In this document: piece after piece, positions 2,864 to 23,002 of the stretch
Numbering within the stretch: position 1 is the stretch's first letter
Layout: the number at the start of each line of letters is the position of its first letter
Source: an uncultured Candidatus Saccharibacteria bacterium
GTDB lineage: Bacteria > Patescibacteriota > Minisyncoccia > Minisyncoccales > CG1-02-41-26
DNA: 43,219 bases
Assembly: GCA_964651635.1 (NCBI GenBank)
Contig: CAZYWT010000004.1
Location: 1-43,219 of the forward strand
Direction of reading: 5' to 3'
The notes under the pieces: generated by a model
Database searches by the model: none
What the model saw: only the letters and a program-made list of their open reading frames with translations
What the model was told of the DNA's origin: nothing
Translations under genes and position numbers: made by a program

Positions 2864-3483
2864 GTGTAATTTGTTACGACAAAAAAGGGAAAGAATTAAA
2901 AAAGAGAAAGATTTCAAAGGAAATTTTGGGCGAAGCAAATGCCAACTTGTTAAAACAAGTTTATGTTTGCGAGTATTCCAACAAAAGACAAGGAGCGGCT
3001 CATAGCAAAGACAGAGGAGAAAAAAGAGGAGGAGGCCGAAAGCCATGGAGGCAAAAAGGAACGGGACGAGCTCGCCATGGAAGCAGAAGGTCCCCTATAT
3101 GGCGAGGGGGAGGGGTAACATTCGGACCCAGAAATGAAAGAAATTACAAAAAAGCGATTACCGAAAAAGTGAAGAAAAAAGCCGTGGAAATGGCTTGGGC
3201 GGAGAAAATGAAAGCGGGGAAACTTGTTTTACTTGACGATATTTCGTTAAAATCAAGCAAAACAAAAGAAGTTGCCGAAATCTTAAAAAATTTGCCGATT
3301 TTCGGCTCGGTTTTAATAGTGACGCCCTCTTATCAAAAAAATTGGGTTTTATCTGCTCGGAACATTCCAAAAGTAAAGGTCTGTCCGTTTTCGGAAATTA
3401 CAACATTTAATATTTTGAGTCATAATTTTGTAGTAATGGACGAGGAAACATTTTCTAAAAAATTAAAAAATTTAAGTAAATAA
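2860..3483 (+). CDS. rplD: 50S ribosomal protein L4 (uL4)
   Basis: 207-aa ORF with KPWRQKGTGRARHGSRRSPIWRGGGV motif. ATGA overlap with the rplC stop. Confidence 0.95.
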   Translation: MSVICYDKKGKELKKRKISKEILGEANANLLKQVYVCEYSNKRQGAAHSKDRGEKRGGGRKPWRQKGTGRARHGSRRSPIWRGGGVTFGPRNERNYKKAITEKVKKKAVEMAWAEKMKAGKLVLLDDISLKSSKTKEVAEILKNLPIFGSVLIVTPSYQKNWVLSARNIPKVKVCPFSEITTFNILSHNFVVMDEETFSKKLKNLSK

Positions 3484-3487
3484 ATTT

Positions 3488-3979
3488 ATGAGTATTTTTA
3501 AGAAAAAAGATAAAGAGAAAAAAGTAAAAAAAGGGAAAGAGGAAGAGAAAGAAAGAAAAGTAGAAGTAGATGAAAATAAAGCCAGCAAAAAAATGTCTTT
3601 CGTTAAAAACAAGAAAAAAGAAAAAAAAGAGGAGGCGGAGAAAAAAGGGAAAACAACCGACGCCAAGAAAAAAGAGGAAAAATCCGCAAAATCCGCCAGA
3701 ATCGCTTATAGAACCTTAATATCTCCCCATATTACCGAAAAAGCCAACAACTTAAGCGAGGAGAGAAAATATATTTTTAGAGTTTTCAAAAATGCCAATA
3801 AAGTTATGATAAAGAAATCGGTGGAGGAGGTTTACAATACCCCGGTGGAAAAAGTTATGATAATCAATGTCCGTCCCAAAAAAAGACGATTAGGCAGAGT
3901 GGAAGGAAAGAAACCGGGCTATAAAAAAGCCATAGTTAAATTAAAAGAAGGCCATTCAATAGAGGCAACGCCAAAATAA
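3488..3979 (+). CDS. rplW: 50S ribosomal protein L23 (uL23) with ~70-aa Lys/Glu-rich N-terminal extension
   Basis: 163-aa ORF. The C-terminal ~95 aa (LISPHITEKA...YIFRV...KKAIVKL) is uL23. The N-terminal K/E low-complexity stretch is extra. Confidence 0.9.
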   Translation: MSIFKKKDKEKKVKKGKEEEKERKVEVDENKASKKMSFVKNKKKEKKEEAEKKGKTTDAKKKEEKSAKSARIAYRTLISPHITEKANNLSEERKYIFRVFKNANKVMIKKSVEEVYNTPVEKVMIINVRPKKRRLGRVEGKKPGYKKAIVKLKEGHSIEATPK

Positions 3980-3988
3980 TAAAACTTT

Positions 3989-4801
3989 ATGAGTAAAACA
4001 ATTGTTAGCAAAAAAAAGCCGGAAAAACGGCTCACAAGGATAATAAAAAAGAAGGGAGGCAGGAATAATACGGGCAGGATTACAATGCGTCATAAAGGAG
4101 GAGGCGCTAAAAGAAAATACCGAATTATTGAATTCGGCGAGAAACTTGTCTGCCGGCAGGCAGGGGGTTTTCCCTACAAGGCTCGGGTTCTTGCCATAGA
4201 ATACGACCCCAACAGAACCGCTTATATCGCTTTAATGGAGAAAGAAGATAGCAAAGAAAAATTTTATATTATAGCCCCGGAAAAGTTAAAAGAAGGAGAT
4301 GTTATAGAAGTGGGGGAGAAAGCTCCAATTTTACCCGGTAATAGAATGCGTCTTTTTAACATTCCTTCCGGAACTGTTGTGTCTTCCGTGGAACTTTTTC
4401 CCGGGCAAGGAGCCAAAATAGCTCGTTCGGCGGGAAATTGGTGTCAAACGATGGGAGTGGAAGGAAAATATGTAAATTTGATTATGCCATCCACGGAAAT
4501 AAGAAAAGTTTTGGGAAATTGCTTTGCCACAATTGGAGCGGTTTCTCGGGGAGAACATAGATTTGAAAAAGCGAGAAAAGCGGGGGACAGCAGAAATAGA
4601 GGGATAAGACCCACCGTTCGCGGCTCTGCTATGAATCCCGTGGACCATCCGCATGGAGGAGGAGAGGGAAAAGCTCCCGTGGGATTAAAACATCCCAAAA
4701 CCCCTTGGGGTAAAGTAGCTCGAGGAGGAAAAACAAGAAATCCCAAAAAATGGACAAACAAATTGATAACAAAAAGGAGAAAAAAGAAGAAAAAGAAATA
4801 A
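3989..4801 (+). CDS. rplB: 50S ribosomal protein L2 (uL2)
   Basis: 270-aa ORF with IEYDPNRTA and MNPVDHPHGGGEG motifs. Confidence 0.97.
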   Translation: MSKTIVSKKKPEKRLTRIIKKKGGRNNTGRITMRHKGGGAKRKYRIIEFGEKLVCRQAGGFPYKARVLAIEYDPNRTAYIALMEKEDSKEKFYIIAPEKLKEGDVIEVGEKAPILPGNRMRLFNIPSGTVVSSVELFPGQGAKIARSAGNWCQTMGVEGKYVNLIMPSTEIRKVLGNCFATIGAVSRGEHRFEKARKAGDSRNRGIRPTVRGSAMNPVDHPHGGGEGKAPVGLKHPKTPWGKVARGGKTRNPKKWTNKLITKRRKKKKKK

Positions 4802-4807
4802 AAAAAT

Positions 4808-5098
4808 ATGGCGAGAAAAAGTTTAAAAAAACAACCGTATATAGACAAACGACTTCTCAAAAAAATTTCCGACTTGGAAAAGGGAAGTAAGCTCCCCGTA
4901 AAAACTTGGTCGAGAAGCGCCATTATAACTCCGGAAATGGTGGGCTATACTTTTGCCGTTCACAATGGCAAAGAGCATATCCCCGTTTATGTTTCCGAAG
5001 AAATGGTCGGACACAAATTGGGAGAATTTTCTCCGACTACCAAGTTTTTTAAGCATGGAGGAAGAATGGAAAAAGAAGCGGCAAGAAAACCGCAATAA
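4808..5098 (+). CDS. rpsS: 30S ribosomal protein S19 (uS19)
   Basis: 96-aa ORF with [12 protein letters not shown]...MVGHKLGEF motif. Confidence 0.96.
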
Positions 5099-5137
5099 AA
5101 ATAGCCGTATTATTAGTTGTTTTATTATTAAAGATTT

Positions 5138-5473
5138 ATGAAAGTGGAAGCAAAATTAAAACATTTAAGAATATCCCCCCGAAAAACAAGGTTGGTGGCC
5201 AACCTTATAAGGGGAAAGAAAGCCGAAGAGGCGCGGGCGCTTTTAAGGCATACAAGAAAAAGAGCGGCTCGTCCGATGTTAAAACTTTTAGAGAGCGCCA
5301 TAGCAAACGCCAAAAACAATTTTGAACTTGACGAAAAAGGACTAATTGTGTCAGAATTGTCGGTGGACGAAGGTTCAAAATTAAAAAGATGGCGGGCAAG
5401 AGCGAGGGGGCAAGCCGCCAGAATAGAAAAAAGAACAAGCCATATAAATATGACATTGGAGAAAAAAGAATAA
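5138..5473 (+). CDS. rplV: 50S ribosomal protein L22 (uL22)
   Basis: 111-aa ORF with LRISPRKTRLVANLIRGK motif. Synteny. Confidence 0.95.
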   Translation: MKVEAKLKHLRISPRKTRLVANLIRGKKAEEARALLRHTRKRAARPMLKLLESAIANAKNNFELDEKGLIVSELSVDEGSKLKRWRARARGQAARIEKRTSHINMTLEKKE

Positions 5474-5478
5474 AAATT

Positions 5479-6123
5479 ATGAGCCAAAACACCCATCCAA
5501 AAATTTTAAGAATAGGAGAAAATCAAACTTGGAGTTCGCAAGGATTTTACAGCGATTATCCTTCGCTTTTGAAAGAGGATTTTAAGATAAGAGATTTTTT
5601 GGAGCAAAATCTTCCCGCCAACTCTGTTGAAGAGATAGAAATAGAAAGAGAAAGAGGTAAAGTTAAGGTTATAATAAAAACTTCTCGTCCCGCTCTTATA
5701 ATAGGAAGGGGCGGTGAAGGAGTGGAAAGAATTAAAAAGCAAATTGATAAAATTTTGGAGCGAAAAAATAAAAAATCCAAAAGAGAATTAAAAATAGATA
5801 TTGTTACCGTAAAAGATGTTTGGGCTTCCGCTCCTTTGGCGAGCAAGTGGATTGCTTCTCAACTTGAAAAAAGAATGCCGTTTAGGCGAGCGATAAAAAT
5901 GGCGATGAGAAAAATAATGGCGGCGAAAGAAGTGAAGGGAGCGAGAGTTCAAGTAACGGGCAGGTTAAACGGAATTGATATAGCCAGAAAAGAATGGCTC
6001 CAAGAAGGAAATCTTCCTCGCCACAAAATAAGAGCGAACATTGATTACGGTTTTGCGCAGGCAAAATGCGGATACGGAGTAATTGGAGTAAAGGTTTGGA
6101 TTTTTAAGGGAGAAAATGTTTAA
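5479..6123 (+). CDS. rpsC: 30S ribosomal protein S3 (uS3)
   Basis: The track ORF 5389-6123 overlaps rplV. The in-frame ATG at 5479 (MSQNTHPKILRIG) gives a canonical uS3 N-terminus with KH-domain GRGGEG motif. Confidence 0.93.
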   Translation: MSQNTHPKILRIGENQTWSSQGFYSDYPSLLKEDFKIRDFLEQNLPANSVEEIEIERERGKVKVIIKTSRPALIIGRGGEGVERIKKQIDKILERKNKKSKRELKIDIVTVKDVWASAPLASKWIASQLEKRMPFRRAIKMAMRKIMAAKEVKGARVQVTGRLNGIDIARKEWLQEGNLPRHKIRANIDYGFAQAKCGYGVIGVKVWIFKGENV

Positions 6124-6126
6124 AAT

Positions 6127-6534
6127 ATGTTATTAGAGCCAAAGAAAATGAAATACCGAAAATGGCAGAAAGGAAGAACAAAAGGAAAAGAAAACAGGGG
6201 AGTGGATTTGGCTTTTGGCGCTTTTGGGCTAAAATCATTAGAAGCAAAATGGATAAAATCCTCCCAAATAGAAGCGGGCAGGAAGGCTATCACCAAAGCG
6301 TTAAAAAGAAAAGGGAAAACCTGGATTAGAATTTTTCCCTACAAGCCAGTAACGCAAAAAGGAGCCGAAGTTGGTATGGGAGGGGGGAAAGGCGCTTTGA
6401 GCCATTATGTTTTTCCGATAAGGCCGGGCAGAATTATTTATGAAATTGACGGAGTGGAGGAAACGGCGGCGCGGCTGGCTCTTAAAAGGGCGTCCGCCAA
6501 ACTTCCCGTGCGAACAAGATTTATAAAAAGATAA
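6127..6534 (+). CDS. rplP: 50S ribosomal protein L16 (uL16)
   Basis: 135-aa ORF with MLLEPKKMKYRK start and GMGGGKG motif. Confidence 0.96.
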   Translation: MLLEPKKMKYRKWQKGRTKGKENRGVDLAFGAFGLKSLEAKWIKSSQIEAGRKAITKALKRKGKTWIRIFPYKPVTQKGAEVGMGGGKGALSHYVFPIRPGRIIYEIDGVEETAARLALKRASAKLPVRTRFIKR

Positions 6535-6539
6535 TATTT

Positions 6540-6770
6540 ATGGTAAAAAGAATTGAAACATTAAAAGAATTTAGGGAAATGAAGGAAGCAAACTTAAAAA
6601 AATTTTTAGAAGAAAAAAGAGAAAAATTACGGGAGATGAGATTTAATCATTCCGCCGGACAATTAAAAAAGGTTGATGATATTAAAAAAACAAAAAAAGA
6701 TATAGCGAGGATTTTAACGCTATTAAAGCAAAAAAGCGACGCTAACTCCAAAACCAAAGCTGTTTCGTAA
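6540..6770 (+). CDS. rpmC: 50S ribosomal protein L29 (uL29)
   Basis: 76-aa helical ORF at the syntenic position (LREMRFNHSAGQLK). Confidence 0.85.
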   Translation: MVKRIETLKEFREMKEANLKKFLEEKREKLREMRFNHSAGQLKKVDDIKKTKKDIARILTLLKQKSDANSKTKAVS

Positions 6771-6807
6771 TTTTTGGTTTATGCGTAAGGGTTTGAGTTA
6801 AAAAAAT

Positions 6808-6866
6808 TCCAAGCCAAAATTGCTCCGCAATTTGGCAGGGGAAAGGGTAAGAAATTCTAATATATG
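6808..6866 (+). promoter_or_regulatory. conserved ~60-nt leader upstream of rpsQ, paralogous to the rpsN leader
   Basis: TCCAAGCCAAAATTGCTCCGCAATTTGGCAGGGGAAAGGGTAAGAAATTCTAATATATG is ~85% identical to 8773-8832. It contains a CCAAAATTGC-tcc-GCAATTTGG hairpin. Confidence 0.6.
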
Positions 6867-7100
6867 TCAAAAAAGAGATTAAAAGGAACAATTATTTCGG
6901 ACAAAATGGATAAAACCGCCGTAGTTAGAGTGGAAACTTTAAAAAAACATCCCAAATACAGGAAAAGGGTTAGGATGTTTAAAAAATATATGGCGGACAA
7001 TCCAAACAATAATCGCAAAGAAGGGGAGGAGGTAATTATAGAAGAATCCCATCCTCTTTCCAAACGAAAAAAGTGGAGGATAGTGGAAGGAGAAAAATAA
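6864..7100 (+). CDS. rpsQ: 30S ribosomal protein S17 (uS17)
   Basis: 78-aa ORF with KGTIISDKMDKTAVVRVE...HPKYRK motif. Confidence 0.94.
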   Translation: MSKKRLKGTIISDKMDKTAVVRVETLKKHPKYRKRVRMFKKYMADNPNNNRKEGEEVIIEESHPLSKRKKWRIVEGEK

Positions 7101-7104
7101 ATTT

Positions 7105-7473
7105 ATGATACAAGAAGGAACAAGATTAAAAGTCGCGGATAACACGGGAGCAAAAATCGTGGAGTGCTTTCGAGTGCTGGGCGGAACAAGAAAAAGATAC
7201 GCTAAAATTGGGGATAGGATAAAAGCCGCCGTAAAAGTTGCCGAGCCGAGAAAAGAAGTGAAAACCCACGATGTAGTAAATGCTGTTGTGGTTCGCCAAA
7301 AAAAGGAAATTAAAAGGGAAGACGGCTCCTACATTCGTTTTGACGAAAATGCCTGTTGTTTAATAAACGACGAGGGGCTTCCTCGCGGAAACAGAATTTT
7401 AGGTCCTATTCCGAGAGAGTTAAAACAAAAAGGTTTTGATAAAATTGTTACGCTGGCAAAAGATGTTGTCTAA
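7105..7473 (+). CDS. rplN: 50S ribosomal protein L14 (uL14)
   Basis: 122-aa ORF with MIQEGTRLKVADNTGAK start. Confidence 0.97.
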   Translation: MIQEGTRLKVADNTGAKIVECFRVLGGTRKRYAKIGDRIKAAVKVAEPRKEVKTHDVVNAVVVRQKKEIKREDGSYIRFDENACCLINDEGLPRGNRILGPIPRELKQKGFDKIVTLAKDVV

Positions 7474-7476
7474 ATT

Positions 7477-7797
7477 ATGAAAATCAAAAAAGACGATACA
7501 ATTTTAATAATAAAGGGCAAGGACAAAGGAAAGAAGAGTAAAGTTTTACGAACATACCCCAAAGAATATAAAATTTTGGCGGAAAATATTAATATAAAGA
7601 AAAAAAGAAAAAGAGGGAGAAAAGAGGGAGAAAAGGGACAAACGGTGGAAATATCGGCTCCTTTTTTTGCCTCCAAAGCCAAGATTATTTGTCCGAAATG
7701 CGGAAAACTGACTCGTATTGGATATAAAATAAAGAGCGGAAAAGAAAGCGGAAGAGAAAAAACAAGAGTTTGCAAGAAATGCGAAAAAGAAATATAA
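7477..7797 (+). CDS. rplX: 50S ribosomal protein L24 (uL24), CxxC...CxxC zinc-ribbon variant
   Basis: 106-aa ORF with KIKKDDTILIIKGKDKGK KOW motif. C-terminus is CPKCGKLTRIGYK...CKKC. Confidence 0.92.
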   Translation: MKIKKDDTILIIKGKDKGKKSKVLRTYPKEYKILAENINIKKKRKRGRKEGEKGQTVEISAPFFASKAKIICPKCGKLTRIGYKIKSGKESGREKTRVCKKCEKEI

Positions 7798-8313
7798 AAA
7801 TGTAAAACTGATTTATGTTAAATATAGAAGAACAATATAAAAAGCGGGGAATCCCAAATCTTATGAAAGCAATGGGATATAAAAATAAAATGGAAGTCCC
7901 TCGCCTTGTTAAGGTTGTGATAAATTGCGGATTTGGAGGCAAGGTGGCGGAAAATATTAATATAAAGAAAAAAAGAAAAAGAGGAAGAAAAGAGGGAGAA
8001 AAGGGACAAACGGTGGAAATATCGGCTCCTTTTTTTGCCTCCAAAGCCAAGATTATTTGTCCGAAATGCGGAAAACTGACTCGTATTGGATATAAAATAA
8101 AGAGCGGAAAAGAAAGCGGAAGAGAAAAAACAAGAGTTTGCAAGAAATGCGAAAAAGAAATATAAAAATGTAAAACTGATTTATGTTAAATATAGAAGAA
8201 CAATATAAAAAGCGGGGAATCCCAAATCTTATGAAAGCAATGGGATATAAAAATAAAATGGAAGTCCCTCGCCTTGTTAAGGTTGTGATAAATTGCGGAT
8301 TTGGAGGCAAGGT
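7578..8313 (+). repeat. tandem duplication, 2 x 368 bp, spanning the rplX 3' part, the intergenic spacer and the rplE 5' part
   Basis: 7578-7945 and 7946-8313 align at offset 368 with a single mismatch (G at 7617 vs A at 7985). GGCGG microhomology is present at 7578, 7946 and 8314. Confidence 0.9.
7815..8165 (+). CDS. chimeric in-frame ORF: uL5 N-terminus (about 45 aa) fused to the uL24 C-terminus (about 71 aa)
   Basis: Created by the 368-bp duplication. The reading frame is maintained across the junction (..GGKVA|ENINIKKK..). It may be a real paralog or an assembly artefact. Confidence 0.4.
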   Translation: MLNIEEQYKKRGIPNLMKAMGYKNKMEVPRLVKVVINCGFGGKVAENINIKKKRKRGRKEGEKGQTVEISAPFFASKAKIICPKCGKLTRIGYKIKSGKESGREKTRVCKKCEKEI

Positions 8314-8743
8314 GGCGGGGAAAAATTTGTCGGAGAGAAAGAAAATAGGAGAGGAGATAAAAAATGTTTTATCCTCTATTACCGGGCAAGCGCCCGCAAT
8401 TTGTTCGGCAAAAAAATCGGAGTCAGCTTTTAAGTTAAGGAAAGGATTGGAGATTGGAGCAAAAGTCACTTTAAGAGGAAAGAAATCTTATGATTTTTTA
8501 GCCAAACTTATTGGGATAGTTTTGCCCCGAACAAGGGATTTTAAAGGATTAAACTTGAAATCTGTGGATAAGCAAGGTAATCTAACAGTTGGCTTTAAGG
8601 ATTATAGTCCCTTTCCCGAAGTAAAGGTTGGCAAAGAGAAAAATCTTTTTGGTTTTGAAATAACGGCGGTAACCAGCGTCAAAAATCGCGAAGAAGGAAT
8701 TGCTTTTTTGAAAGAATTGGGAGTGCCTTTCAAAAAACAATAA
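8183..8743 (+). CDS. rplE: 50S ribosomal protein L5 (uL5)
   Basis: 186-aa ORF. PRLVKVVINCGFG and GFKDYSPFPE motifs are typical of uL5. Confidence 0.95.
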   Translation: MLNIEEQYKKRGIPNLMKAMGYKNKMEVPRLVKVVINCGFGGKVAGKNLSERKKIGEEIKNVLSSITGQAPAICSAKKSESAFKLRKGLEIGAKVTLRGKKSYDFLAKLIGIVLPRTRDFKGLNLKSVDKQGNLTVGFKDYSPFPEVKVGKEKNLFGFEITAVTSVKNREEGIAFLKELGVPFKKQ

Positions 8744-8772
8744 TTAAAAACCAAGATATTTAGAAAAGAAAC

Positions 8773-8832
8773 TCCAAGCCGAAATTGCTCCGCGATAGGG
8801 CAGGAGGAAAGAGTAAGAAATTCTAATATATG
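8773..8832 (+). promoter_or_regulatory. conserved ~60-nt leader upstream of rpsN, paralogous to the rpsQ leader
   Basis: TCCAAGCCGAAATTGCTCCGCGATAGGGCAGGAGGAAAGAGTAAGAAATTCTAATATATG aligns with 6808-6866. The last 20 nt before the ATG are identical. Confidence 0.6.
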
Positions 8833-9015
8833 CCGAAAAAATCACAAATAGCAAAAACAGAAAAAAAGCCGAAATATAAAACTCGCAAAGTGAGGAGATG
8901 TTTTAGATGCGGGAGAAGAAGAGGTTTTATTAGGGACTTTGGCTTGTGTCGGATATGTTTTAGAGAAATGTCAAGTAAAGGCGAGATTCCGGGGATTAAA
9001 AAATCATCTTGGTAA
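8830..9015 (+). CDS. rpsN: 30S ribosomal protein S14, type Z (zinc-binding)
   Basis: 61-aa ORF with CxxC...CxxC ([20 protein letters not shown]) and a C-terminal W. Confidence 0.95.
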
Positions 9016-9022
9016 AATATAT

Positions 9023-9409
9023 ATGGATACTATAGCAGACGCTTTAACAAGGGTAAGAAACGCGCAAGCGGTTGGCAAGGAGTTTGTTCTAATTTCATAC
9101 TCCAAACCAGTTTTAGAAATTTCCAAAATTTTAGTTAAGTCGGGATTTTTATCTCAACTTAAAAAAGTTAAAAGAGAGGGCAAAAAATACATAAAGGTTT
9201 ATTTGAAATATACAGAAGGTAAGGGAGCGATAGAGGGTATTAAAAAAATATCTTGTCCCGGACGAAGGTTTTATAAAAAAGCGAAAGAAATAAAAAAAGT
9301 AAGGAGCGGTTTTGGAATTTCTATTATTTCCACTTCCGGGGGTATAATGACGGGAAAAGAAGCCCGCTCTAAAAATTTGGGAGGAGAGATGATTTGCGAG
9401 GTTTGGTAA
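9023..9409 (+). CDS. rpsH: 30S ribosomal protein S8 (uS8)
   Basis: The track ORF 8939-9409 overlaps rpsN. The in-frame ATG at 9023 (MDTIADALTRVRNA) is the canonical uS8 start. Confidence 0.94.
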   Translation: MDTIADALTRVRNAQAVGKEFVLISYSKPVLEISKILVKSGFLSQLKKVKREGKKYIKVYLKYTEGKGAIEGIKKISCPGRRFYKKAKEIKKVRSGFGISIISTSGGIMTGKEARSKNLGGEMICEVW

Positions 9410-9424
9410 TAATTTTTATATAAT

Positions 9425-9967
9425 ATGTCCAGAATAGGCAAACAACCAATAAAAATAGAAGAGGGTGTTTCGGTAGAAGTAAAAAGCGATATTGTTTTTG
9501 TAAAAAGCCCCAAAGGGGGCTTGAATTTTAAGTTGCCCCCCGGGATAAAGGCAAAAGTGAAAAACAGCGATTTAATAGTAGAAATGTTGAATAAAACAAA
9601 GAAAACGCCCGGTTTTTGGGGGCTTACTCGCTCTATATTGTTTAATATGGTAAAGGGAGTAAAAGAGGGTTTTTCTAAAAAATTGATAATAGAAGGAGTC
9701 GGATTTAAGGCGGCTTTGGAAGGAGAGAAAAGATTAAAGTTGGATATGGGATTTTCTCATCCGGTTTTTATTGCTATCCCCGAAGATTTAGAAGTTCAAG
9801 TGGCGAAAAACGAAATTACAATTTCGGGAATAGACAAACAAAAAGTGGGGGAGTTGGCGGCAAAAATTAGAAAGGTTAGGCCTCCCGAGCCGTATAAGGG
9901 AAAAGGTATAAGATATTCAGACGAGGTGGTAAGAAGAAAAGAGGGTAAAAAAGCCGGCGCAGTTTAA
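9425..9967 (+). CDS. rplF: 50S ribosomal protein L6 (uL6)
   Basis: 180-aa ORF with MSRIGKQPI start and PEPYKGKGIRY motif. Confidence 0.96.
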   Translation: MSRIGKQPIKIEEGVSVEVKSDIVFVKSPKGGLNFKLPPGIKAKVKNSDLIVEMLNKTKKTPGFWGLTRSILFNMVKGVKEGFSKKLIIEGVGFKAALEGEKRLKLDMGFSHPVFIAIPEDLEVQVAKNEITISGIDKQKVGELAAKIRKVRPPEPYKGKGIRYSDEVVRRKEGKKAGAV

Positions 9968-10005
9968 TTTATTTTTTAAAAGTTGTTTTTAGAAAATTAG
10001 AAAAT

Positions 10006-10353
10006 ATGAGGAAAAACATTTCGGCAAAAAAAAGAAGACAATTAAGAACGAGAGCCAAAATAAAAGGAACAAAAGAGGTTCCCCGACTTTCCGTTTTTCG
10101 CTCCCACAATCATATCTATGCCCAACTTATAAACGACGAAGAAAATAAAACAATAGGCAGAGCGACCGATTTTGAATTGAAAAGCAAAAAGAGTAAAAAA
10201 ACGGAAAAAGCAAAAAAGGTGGGAGAAGCGCTCGCGAAAAAAGCTCGGGATTTGGGAGTGGAGAAAATTGTTTTTGACCGCGGCGGTTATAAATATCACG
10301 GCCGAGTAAAAGCGTTGGCGGAAGGCGCTCGCCAGAGGGGATTAAAATTTTAA
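10006..10353 (+). CDS. rplR: 50S ribosomal protein L18 (uL18)
   Basis: 115-aa ORF with RLSVFRSHNHIYAQLI and FDRGGYKYHGRVKALAEGAR motifs. Confidence 0.95.
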   Translation: MRKNISAKKRRQLRTRAKIKGTKEVPRLSVFRSHNHIYAQLINDEENKTIGRATDFELKSKKSKKTEKAKKVGEALAKKARDLGVEKIVFDRGGYKYHGRVKALAEGARQRGLKF

Positions 10354-22640: not shown

Positions 22641-23002
22641 TAAGTTATCCCAATGTAGAACCCTCCAAAGAGGAGATAAAAAAACATATTGAATTAGCCA
22701 AAAAAAGGATTCATTCCGCAGAAATCTTGAGAAATGAAAAAGAATATAGAGATGCTGTTTCCAGGGCTTATTATGCTTTTTTCGACGCTGCTTCCGCTTT
22801 ATTATTAACAGAAGGATTGGTCGCTAAAACGCATGCGGGGTTAATAACATTATTTAGTTTACATTTTATTAAAAAAGGAAGAATAAAATCAAAATTTGCT
22901 ACATTTTTCAAAAGAGCTAAAGAGGCAAGAGAGGAAGCTGATTATGAAATATATAAAAATTTTACTCGGAAAGAGACGGAAAGAGACGGGAAGAATTATT
23001 AA
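22637..23002 (+). CDS. HEPN-domain protein, C-terminally truncated by a 10-bp tandem duplication
   Basis: 121-aa ORF with AKEAREEADYE HEPN-type motif. CGGAAAGAGA is duplicated at 22967-22986. Removing one copy extends the ORF to 23057 with a helical tail. Confidence 0.8.
   Translation: MISYPNVEPSKEEIKKHIELAKKRIHSAEILRNEKEYRDAVSRAYYAFFDAASALLLTEGLVAKTHAGLITLFSLHFIKKGRIKSKFATFFKRAKEAREEADYEIYKNFTRKETERDGKNY

Follow-up and report, generated by a model that had tools for sequence, protein, structure and literature searches.

A tandem duplication across the rplX–rplE boundary of a Patescibacteria genome, probably recent and microhomology-mediated, encodes an in-frame uL5–uL24 chimera

We describe two head-to-tail copies of a 368-nt unit in the spc operon of a Patescibacteria genome assembly and interpret them, with a probability of about 0.63, as a recent microhomology-mediated tandem duplication that would be carried by much of the sampled population, if not by all of it. 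The unit begins within rplX (uL24) and ends within rplE (uL5). Its duplication is accompanied by a chimeric open reading frame that joins the start of the second gene to the end of the first. The genome comprises 667 kb in 48 contigs (37.7% G+C, 99.8% estimated completeness), and the names attached to its database homologues point to Patescibacteria/CPR. The window, by which we mean the whole stretch of DNA analysed, is contig C4 of this assembly, 43,219 nt in length; the genes, repeat copies and microhomology arms of the locus are on the forward strand.

Results

Two abutting copies share the same hexamer at each border

The two copies of the unit occupy positions 7578–7945 and 7946–8313, abut without a spacer and are identical at 367 of 368 positions, the sole mismatch being G at 7617 versus A at 7985. 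Base-by-base comparison at a period of 368 yielded a single continuous run of identity, 7577–7950 against 7945–8318 (374 nt), and TRF returned a period of 368, 2.0 copies and a 99% match, with which a repeat search and BLAST of the genome against itself concurred. The direct tandem copies proposed in a preliminary description of this DNA are therefore upheld by the period-368 comparison, by TRF and by self-BLAST. In the whole 667-kb genome the unit is present in exactly two copies, which is far beyond chance. Copy 1 comprises codons 35–106 and the stop codon of rplX, the 17-nt spacer, codons 1–43 of rplE and part of codon 44; copy 2 was delimited by the same approaches.

The hexamer TGGCGG is found at the left border, at the junction and at the right border of the repeat. 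The first arm (7577–7582) lies in codons 34–36 of rplX (tTG GCG Gaa, encoding L-A-E) and the third (8313–8318) in codons 44–46 of rplE (gTG GCG Ggg, encoding V-A-G). The second arm (7945–7950) constitutes the novel join, at which the frame crosses from the rplE part (gTG GCG G) into the rplX part (..Gaa); the sequence spanning it at 7930–7965 reads …GGCAAGGTGGCGGAAAATATTAAT…. Microhomology at all three borders had been described before, with GGCGG given as its extent; the microhomology stands, but the motif is one base longer. Its G+C content is 83%, compared with 37.7% for the genome. At least six extra matching border bases occur for 0.36% of 368-nt units genome-wide (p = 0.0036), which places the repetition of the same motif at the three positions beyond chance.

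Both parental genes are intact

Complete copies of both genes flank the join, as the preliminary description had stated: the ORFs are full and their Pfam domains complete. rplX (7477–7797, 106 aa) has its last 72 codons and stop codon inside copy 1, while the part of rplE (8183–8743, 186 aa) inside copy 2 comprises codons 1–43 plus two bases of codon 44. The rplX product carries the two features of uL24, namely KOW and ribosomal_L24 (the latter with 55.8 bits), and is 53–63% identical to 17 Patescibacteria uL24 proteins; the rplE product carries the two features of uL5, Ribosomal_L5 and L5_C.

An AF2 model of the native uL24 reached a pLDDT of 89, with strands at residues 8–11, 20–27, 32–35, 40–45, 55–60, 68–71, 81–86 and 94–99. 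Residues 72–102 form a CxxC-X23-CxxC motif, the cysteines of which (C72, C75, C99 and C102) are invariant among 18 Patescibacteria homologues and are flanked in the model by the hairpin strands 68–71, 81–86 and 94–99. The protein thus contains two conserved CxxC knuckles on β-hairpins, a Cys4 module that would be expected to bind a metal. Generic Pfam zinc-ribbon models scored under their cut-offs on the window proteins. Compared with uL24 of Thermus thermophilus (e.g. chain 4zer_1Y), the window protein aligns over residues 1–103 with both CxxC pairs in register (ICPKCG / ICPACG and VCKKC / VCAKC). With its four cysteines conserved and in register, the earlier wording of a 'zinc-ribbon C-terminal half' of uL24 is fair, and the Cys4 form is one already known from solved T. 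thermophilus ribosomes. The likeness concerns the module borne by the chimera rather than the duplication, and metal binding by the CPR protein is a prediction.

The join-point ORF lacks part of each parental fold

The ORF created at the join (7815–8165, 116 aa) fuses residues 1–45 of uL5 in frame to residues 36–106 of uL24. The 237 nt upstream of it are the same as those upstream of rplE, and the context of its stop codon is the same as that of rplX. Across the 7945–7950 join it encodes the junction peptide …GGKVAENINIK… (in longer form, VVINCGFGGKVAENINIK). ORF and Pfam analyses agree with the earlier account of an in-frame fusion of a uL5 N-terminus with a uL24 C-terminus that has its own copy of the rplE start. 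Residues 24–46 match the first 23 of the 57 positions of Ribosomal_L5 (PF00281) with 24.2 bits, under the cut-off of 34.9, and residues 48–116 match the whole ribosomal_L24 model (PF17136) with 55.9 bits. The chimera is accordingly neither a uL24, as it has PF17136 alone and the KOW part is absent, nor a uL5, as it has a partial PF00281 match under the cut-off and no L5_C.

The breakpoint after uL24 residue 35 leaves the chimera without strands 8–11, 20–27 and 32–35, the first three of the KOW/SH3-like barrel. Its AF2 model has a pLDDT of 58.5 and a pTM of 0.31 and exceeds 70 in the C-terminal Cys4 hairpins only; the underlying alignment contained zero homologues for the uL5 part, so the poor model is weak evidence. 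Among 5.8 billion clustered proteins, the architecture was found in none except the window's own protein. Given the three missing barrel strands and the presence of only the first 45 residues of uL5, we judge the chimera to be most likely a non-functional, tolerated by-product, and there is no sign of any function. It is presumably expressed, and a cost might be expected if a product containing half of an rRNA-binding protein is made at ribosomal-protein level. For annotators, the locus carries a warning, as it gives a spurious extra 'L24' gene call.

Gene order, frame and spacing follow from the position of the breakpoints

Any tandem duplication with its ends in two adjacent genes leaves the upstream gene intact, a fusion of the downstream start to the upstream end, and the downstream gene intact. 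The intact rplX and rplE, as well as the rplE start and rplX stop of the chimera, are explained by this geometry without recourse to selection, and they are not signs of it. Likewise, the fusion is in frame because TGGCGG stands in the same codon phase in rplX and rplE, a one-in-three outcome by chance. Translation from 7815 reaches the stop codon ending at 8165, 17 nt short of the rplE ATG, in the observed frame only; in either of the remaining frames it would terminate at 7960 or 7965, 217–222 nt upstream of that ATG. The 17 nt between the chimera stop and the rplE ATG equal the ancestral rplX–rplE spacing, and neighbouring genes in the operon are 3–17 nt apart, consistent with coupled translation. 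We would expect rplE and the genes downstream of it to be still expressed normally. In an out-of-frame version, rplE might have been uncoupled and the duplication lost.

Relatives carry a single copy

In each of 11 relatives, all from other genera, one uL14, one uL24 and one uL5 stand in a row with no partial copies, from which we conclude that the single copy is ancestral. A look for the same duplication in related genomes, which the preliminary description had suggested, thus found it absent from the loci of these 11. BLAST over the 40 nearest genomes revealed no pattern of a duplicate; all of them belong to other genera with at most 71% nucleotide identity, so the timing of the duplication is loosely bounded. 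Tandem repeats of about 368 nt revert readily, and the genome encodes recA, so a fixed difference between the copies would imply surprising persistence. In S. pombe, tandem duplications revert about 100 times faster than they form (PMC8639346).

One could suppose that the duplication is old and that its copies have been held near-identical by gene conversion, for which recA is at hand and with which a difference near the copy edge, where conversion tracts would end more often, would agree. RecA-dependent recombination of tandem copies, however, deletes more easily than it converts, and no trace of the duplication is found in family-level relatives. Moreover, old duplications lose their microhomology arms (bioRxiv 10.64898/2026.02.28.708716), and those of the 368-nt repeat have remained perfect. 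We consider an old, converted duplication very improbable.

The single difference between the copies is a weak clock

Positions 7617 and 7985 correspond to the third base of rplX codon 47 (GGG and GGA, both Gly). The change had been called synonymous, and the two translations are indeed identical (KRKRGRKEGEKG). We rejected it as an indication of either purifying selection or age, since a single site has no statistical weight. Position 7617 is contained in an 11-nt purine mini-repeat (AAAAGAGGGAG, 2.5 copies by TRF, 7609–7635); the mini-repeat is perfect in copy 1, whereas its counterpart in copy 2 (7977–8003) is imperfect. At 40 nt from the start of the copy, the difference is also close enough to unique flank for a read or k-mer to cover both. 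Its place inside the mini-repeat and close to the copy edge makes it a weak clock. It may be a polymorphism between strains, placed in one copy by the assembler thanks to the nearby unique sequence, and local slippage or conversion in the mini-repeat could have made or erased it.

Another reading is that the duplication is real and the chimera is kept by selection. The join-point gene would then be a newborn ribosome-associated protein, expressed at ribosomal-protein levels and consisting of a Cys4 fragment of uL24 with a uL5-derived leader. It might act as a small zinc-ribbon protein at the uL24 site on 23S rRNA or as an assembly modulator, or its translation might serve as an obligatory coupling bridge to rplE. 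The open frame, the synonymous nature of the single copy difference and persistence despite recA could all be taken in this sense, as could the complete, conserved Cys4 module, the sole part modelled above pLDDT 70. Yet an in-frame join is what one such event in three would give, one synonymous change is without statistical weight, and the copy difference may reflect strain polymorphism rather than age. Furthermore, the chimera is absent in the 11 relatives and in the protein database, and it combines the loss of three barrel strands with a poor model. We regard selection for the chimera as very improbable. If it were true, the birth of a gene out of two universal ribosomal proteins would have been caught in the act, in a CPR bacterium with a reduced genome.

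The junction was probably present in the reads

Six matching bases at the borders are rare for a join between contig overlaps and too short to mislead a k-mer assembler, for which reason the junction was probably in the reads. On the evidence of the assembled sequence, we hold it to be quite likely that the junction existed in the DNA of the sample.

The alternative is that the organism has a single copy and that the second was introduced during assembly, scaffolding, curation or library preparation, as an unmerged contig overlap, an over-walked graph loop or through amplification chimeras formed at TGGCGG. We find this unlikely. All evidence comes from one assembly with no independent record of the organism: an exact look-up of the chimera protein returned no record, and a metagenome scan with the unit-end 22-mer GGATTTGGAGGCAAGGTGGCGG gave 0 matches, in collections from which entries for this genome or a very close one may be missing. 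In a collection of 5.8 billion proteins, the chimera, rplX and rplE proteins are each found on one contig only and the organism in one assembly only. Homology search of the same 5.8 billion proteins placed the nearest foreign uL24 at about 60% identity, the close matches being the window's own three proteins only. The genome is also scaffolded and contains six gaps of 100 N and one of 10 N. Another of its contigs, C22, ends within the third copy of a 3249-nt unit with alleles X, Y, X, like a graph loop through a strain bubble; and the sole difference between the 368-nt copies is near the unit start (offset 40), as in C22.

Set against this, plain concatenation of overlapping contig ends would give at least six border matches only 0.36% of the time, and the site has no N gap in its vicinity. 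As every assembler uses a k far larger than six bases, we infer that the reads must have contained the k-mers across the junction, together with the A allele linked to it. Chimeric molecules formed at random would be few and dispersed, and de Bruijn assemblers normally prune such low-coverage edges. Should the second copy be an artefact after all, a reference MAG would contain an assembly error that ought to be flagged.

Other repeats and regulatory signals

Further repeats were observed in the genome. On contig C22 (locus L015), positions 3473–10181 contain 2.06 tandem copies of the 3249-nt unit, running into the contig end. The unit codes for two proteins, one of 712 aa with a dockerin domain and an LPG_synthase_TM protein of 344 aa. 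Its copies are identical but for four sites within the first 155 nt, with alleles X, Y, X, and one border mismatch at 3477. Either the array is real and has at least three copies, or a loop in the assembly graph was walked through a strain bubble. In the window itself, positions 22967–22986 are a perfect 10-nt tandem duplication (CGGAAAGAGA twice) followed by CGG, that is, with 3 nt of border microhomology. Besides the 368-nt repeat, contig C4 therefore has another fresh duplication of the microhomology type. Being other fresh tandem duplications, the 10-nt repeat and the C22 array were counted for the reading of the 368-nt repeat as a duplication. Two near-tandem pairs with unique spacers are each 100% identical, one on contig C11 (12182–12937, 339 nt repeated at period 417) and one on contig C2 (14799–15281, 216 nt repeated at period 267). 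TRF also reported a 26-nt tandem unit at many contig ends.

The S8 operator of E. coli is located where rplE begins. An Rfam search of 6000–10000 at E up to 1 returned no family, and the fold of the rplE start region (7770–7880) was not significant (z = -1.48). A duplicated regulatory RNA in the unit was consequently dropped as a candidate. A promoter or terminator inside the 368-nt unit was likewise rejected, with weak 9/12 promoter-like matches only and no terminator. Elsewhere in the operon region, two intergenic leaders of about 90 nt, upstream of rpsQ (6800–6891) and of rpsN (8765–8857), are 79–90% identical by segment, with the consensus …CCAAGCC.AAATTGCTCCGC…GGCAGG.G.AAAG.GTAAGAAATTCTAATATATG. 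BLAST found just these two copies in the genome, and they had no Rfam match.

Discussion

We propose that the present arrangement was produced by replication slippage, or else by template switching, from one TGGCGG hexamer to another at a distance of 368 nt, with breakpoints in rplX codons 34–36 and rplE codons 44–46. Such an event would yield, in order, an intact rplX, a fusion of the rplE start to the rplX end and an intact rplE, and the identical codon phase of the hexamer in the two genes would place the fusion in frame. Ribosomes on the fusion would terminate at the duplicate of the rplX stop codon, which leaves 17 nt to the true rplE ATG. With the ancestral stop-to-start spacing kept in this manner, expression of rplE and of the genes downstream would remain normal. 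The duplication would belong to the slip type of a known mutation class.

Long GC-rich arms are preferred in microhomology-mediated tandem duplication, being reported as '1,000x more likely' (PMC8639346), and the length of the arms correlates with their GC content (bioRxiv 10.64898/2026.02.28.708716). A GC-rich TGGCGG arm in an AT-rich genome fits this reported preference (PMC8639346; bioRxiv 10.64898/2026.02.28.708716). The preliminary description had called the duplication 'very unusual'. This can be maintained for its location but not for its mutation class, since microhomology-mediated tandem duplications are common and well described (PMC8639346; bioRxiv 10.64898/2026.02.28.708716). The duplication opens neither a new mechanism nor a long-standing question; what is mildly notable is its location in the spc operon of a minimal genome, combined with an in-frame join that keeps the spacing. 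If the duplication is real, a tandem duplication smaller than a gene can be accommodated even in the most conserved and highly expressed operon that a minimal genome has, and the locus would illustrate from nature how join-point fusions come about and are tolerated while the flanking genes are spared. Our literature search for chimera-making tandem duplications in ribosomal-protein operons found none.

Three known systems offer themselves for comparison. With the false tandem duplications that short-read metagenome assemblies show at contig joins or graph loops, the present case shares its occurrence in one scaffolded MAG only, a copy difference near the unit edge and the company, in the same genome, of a contig (C22) that ends in a multi-copy loop. 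It differs from them in having significant border microhomology (p = 0.0036) and no N gap, and in that a 6-nt match cannot make a k-mer junction.

In structure, the repeat resembles microhomology-mediated tandem duplications as described in S. pombe, in E. coli and across microbes (PMC8639346; PMC13167724; bioRxiv 10.64898/2026.02.28.708716). Shared features are two spacerless head-to-tail copies, near-identity of the copies, a single copy in relatives and a short GC-rich arm found once per border, here of 6 nt within the 4–25 nt range of those papers. In contrast, the 368-nt unit is larger than the inter-arm spacings discussed for S. pombe (about 100–150 nt), and the duplication is seen in an assembly consensus rather than as a rare subclonal variant. 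It is also situated in a core ribosomal-protein operon.

RecA-independent duplications with short-homology join points in Salmonella and E. coli give rise to hybrid genes or fused operons at the join. The classical examples usually span kilobases to hundreds of kilobases and are selected for dosage, whereas the duplication in the window is sub-gene sized, doubles no complete gene and has no evident dosage benefit. In its outcome it nevertheless resembles them, as the 5' part of a downstream gene becomes fused to the 3' part of an upstream gene while both parents stay intact.
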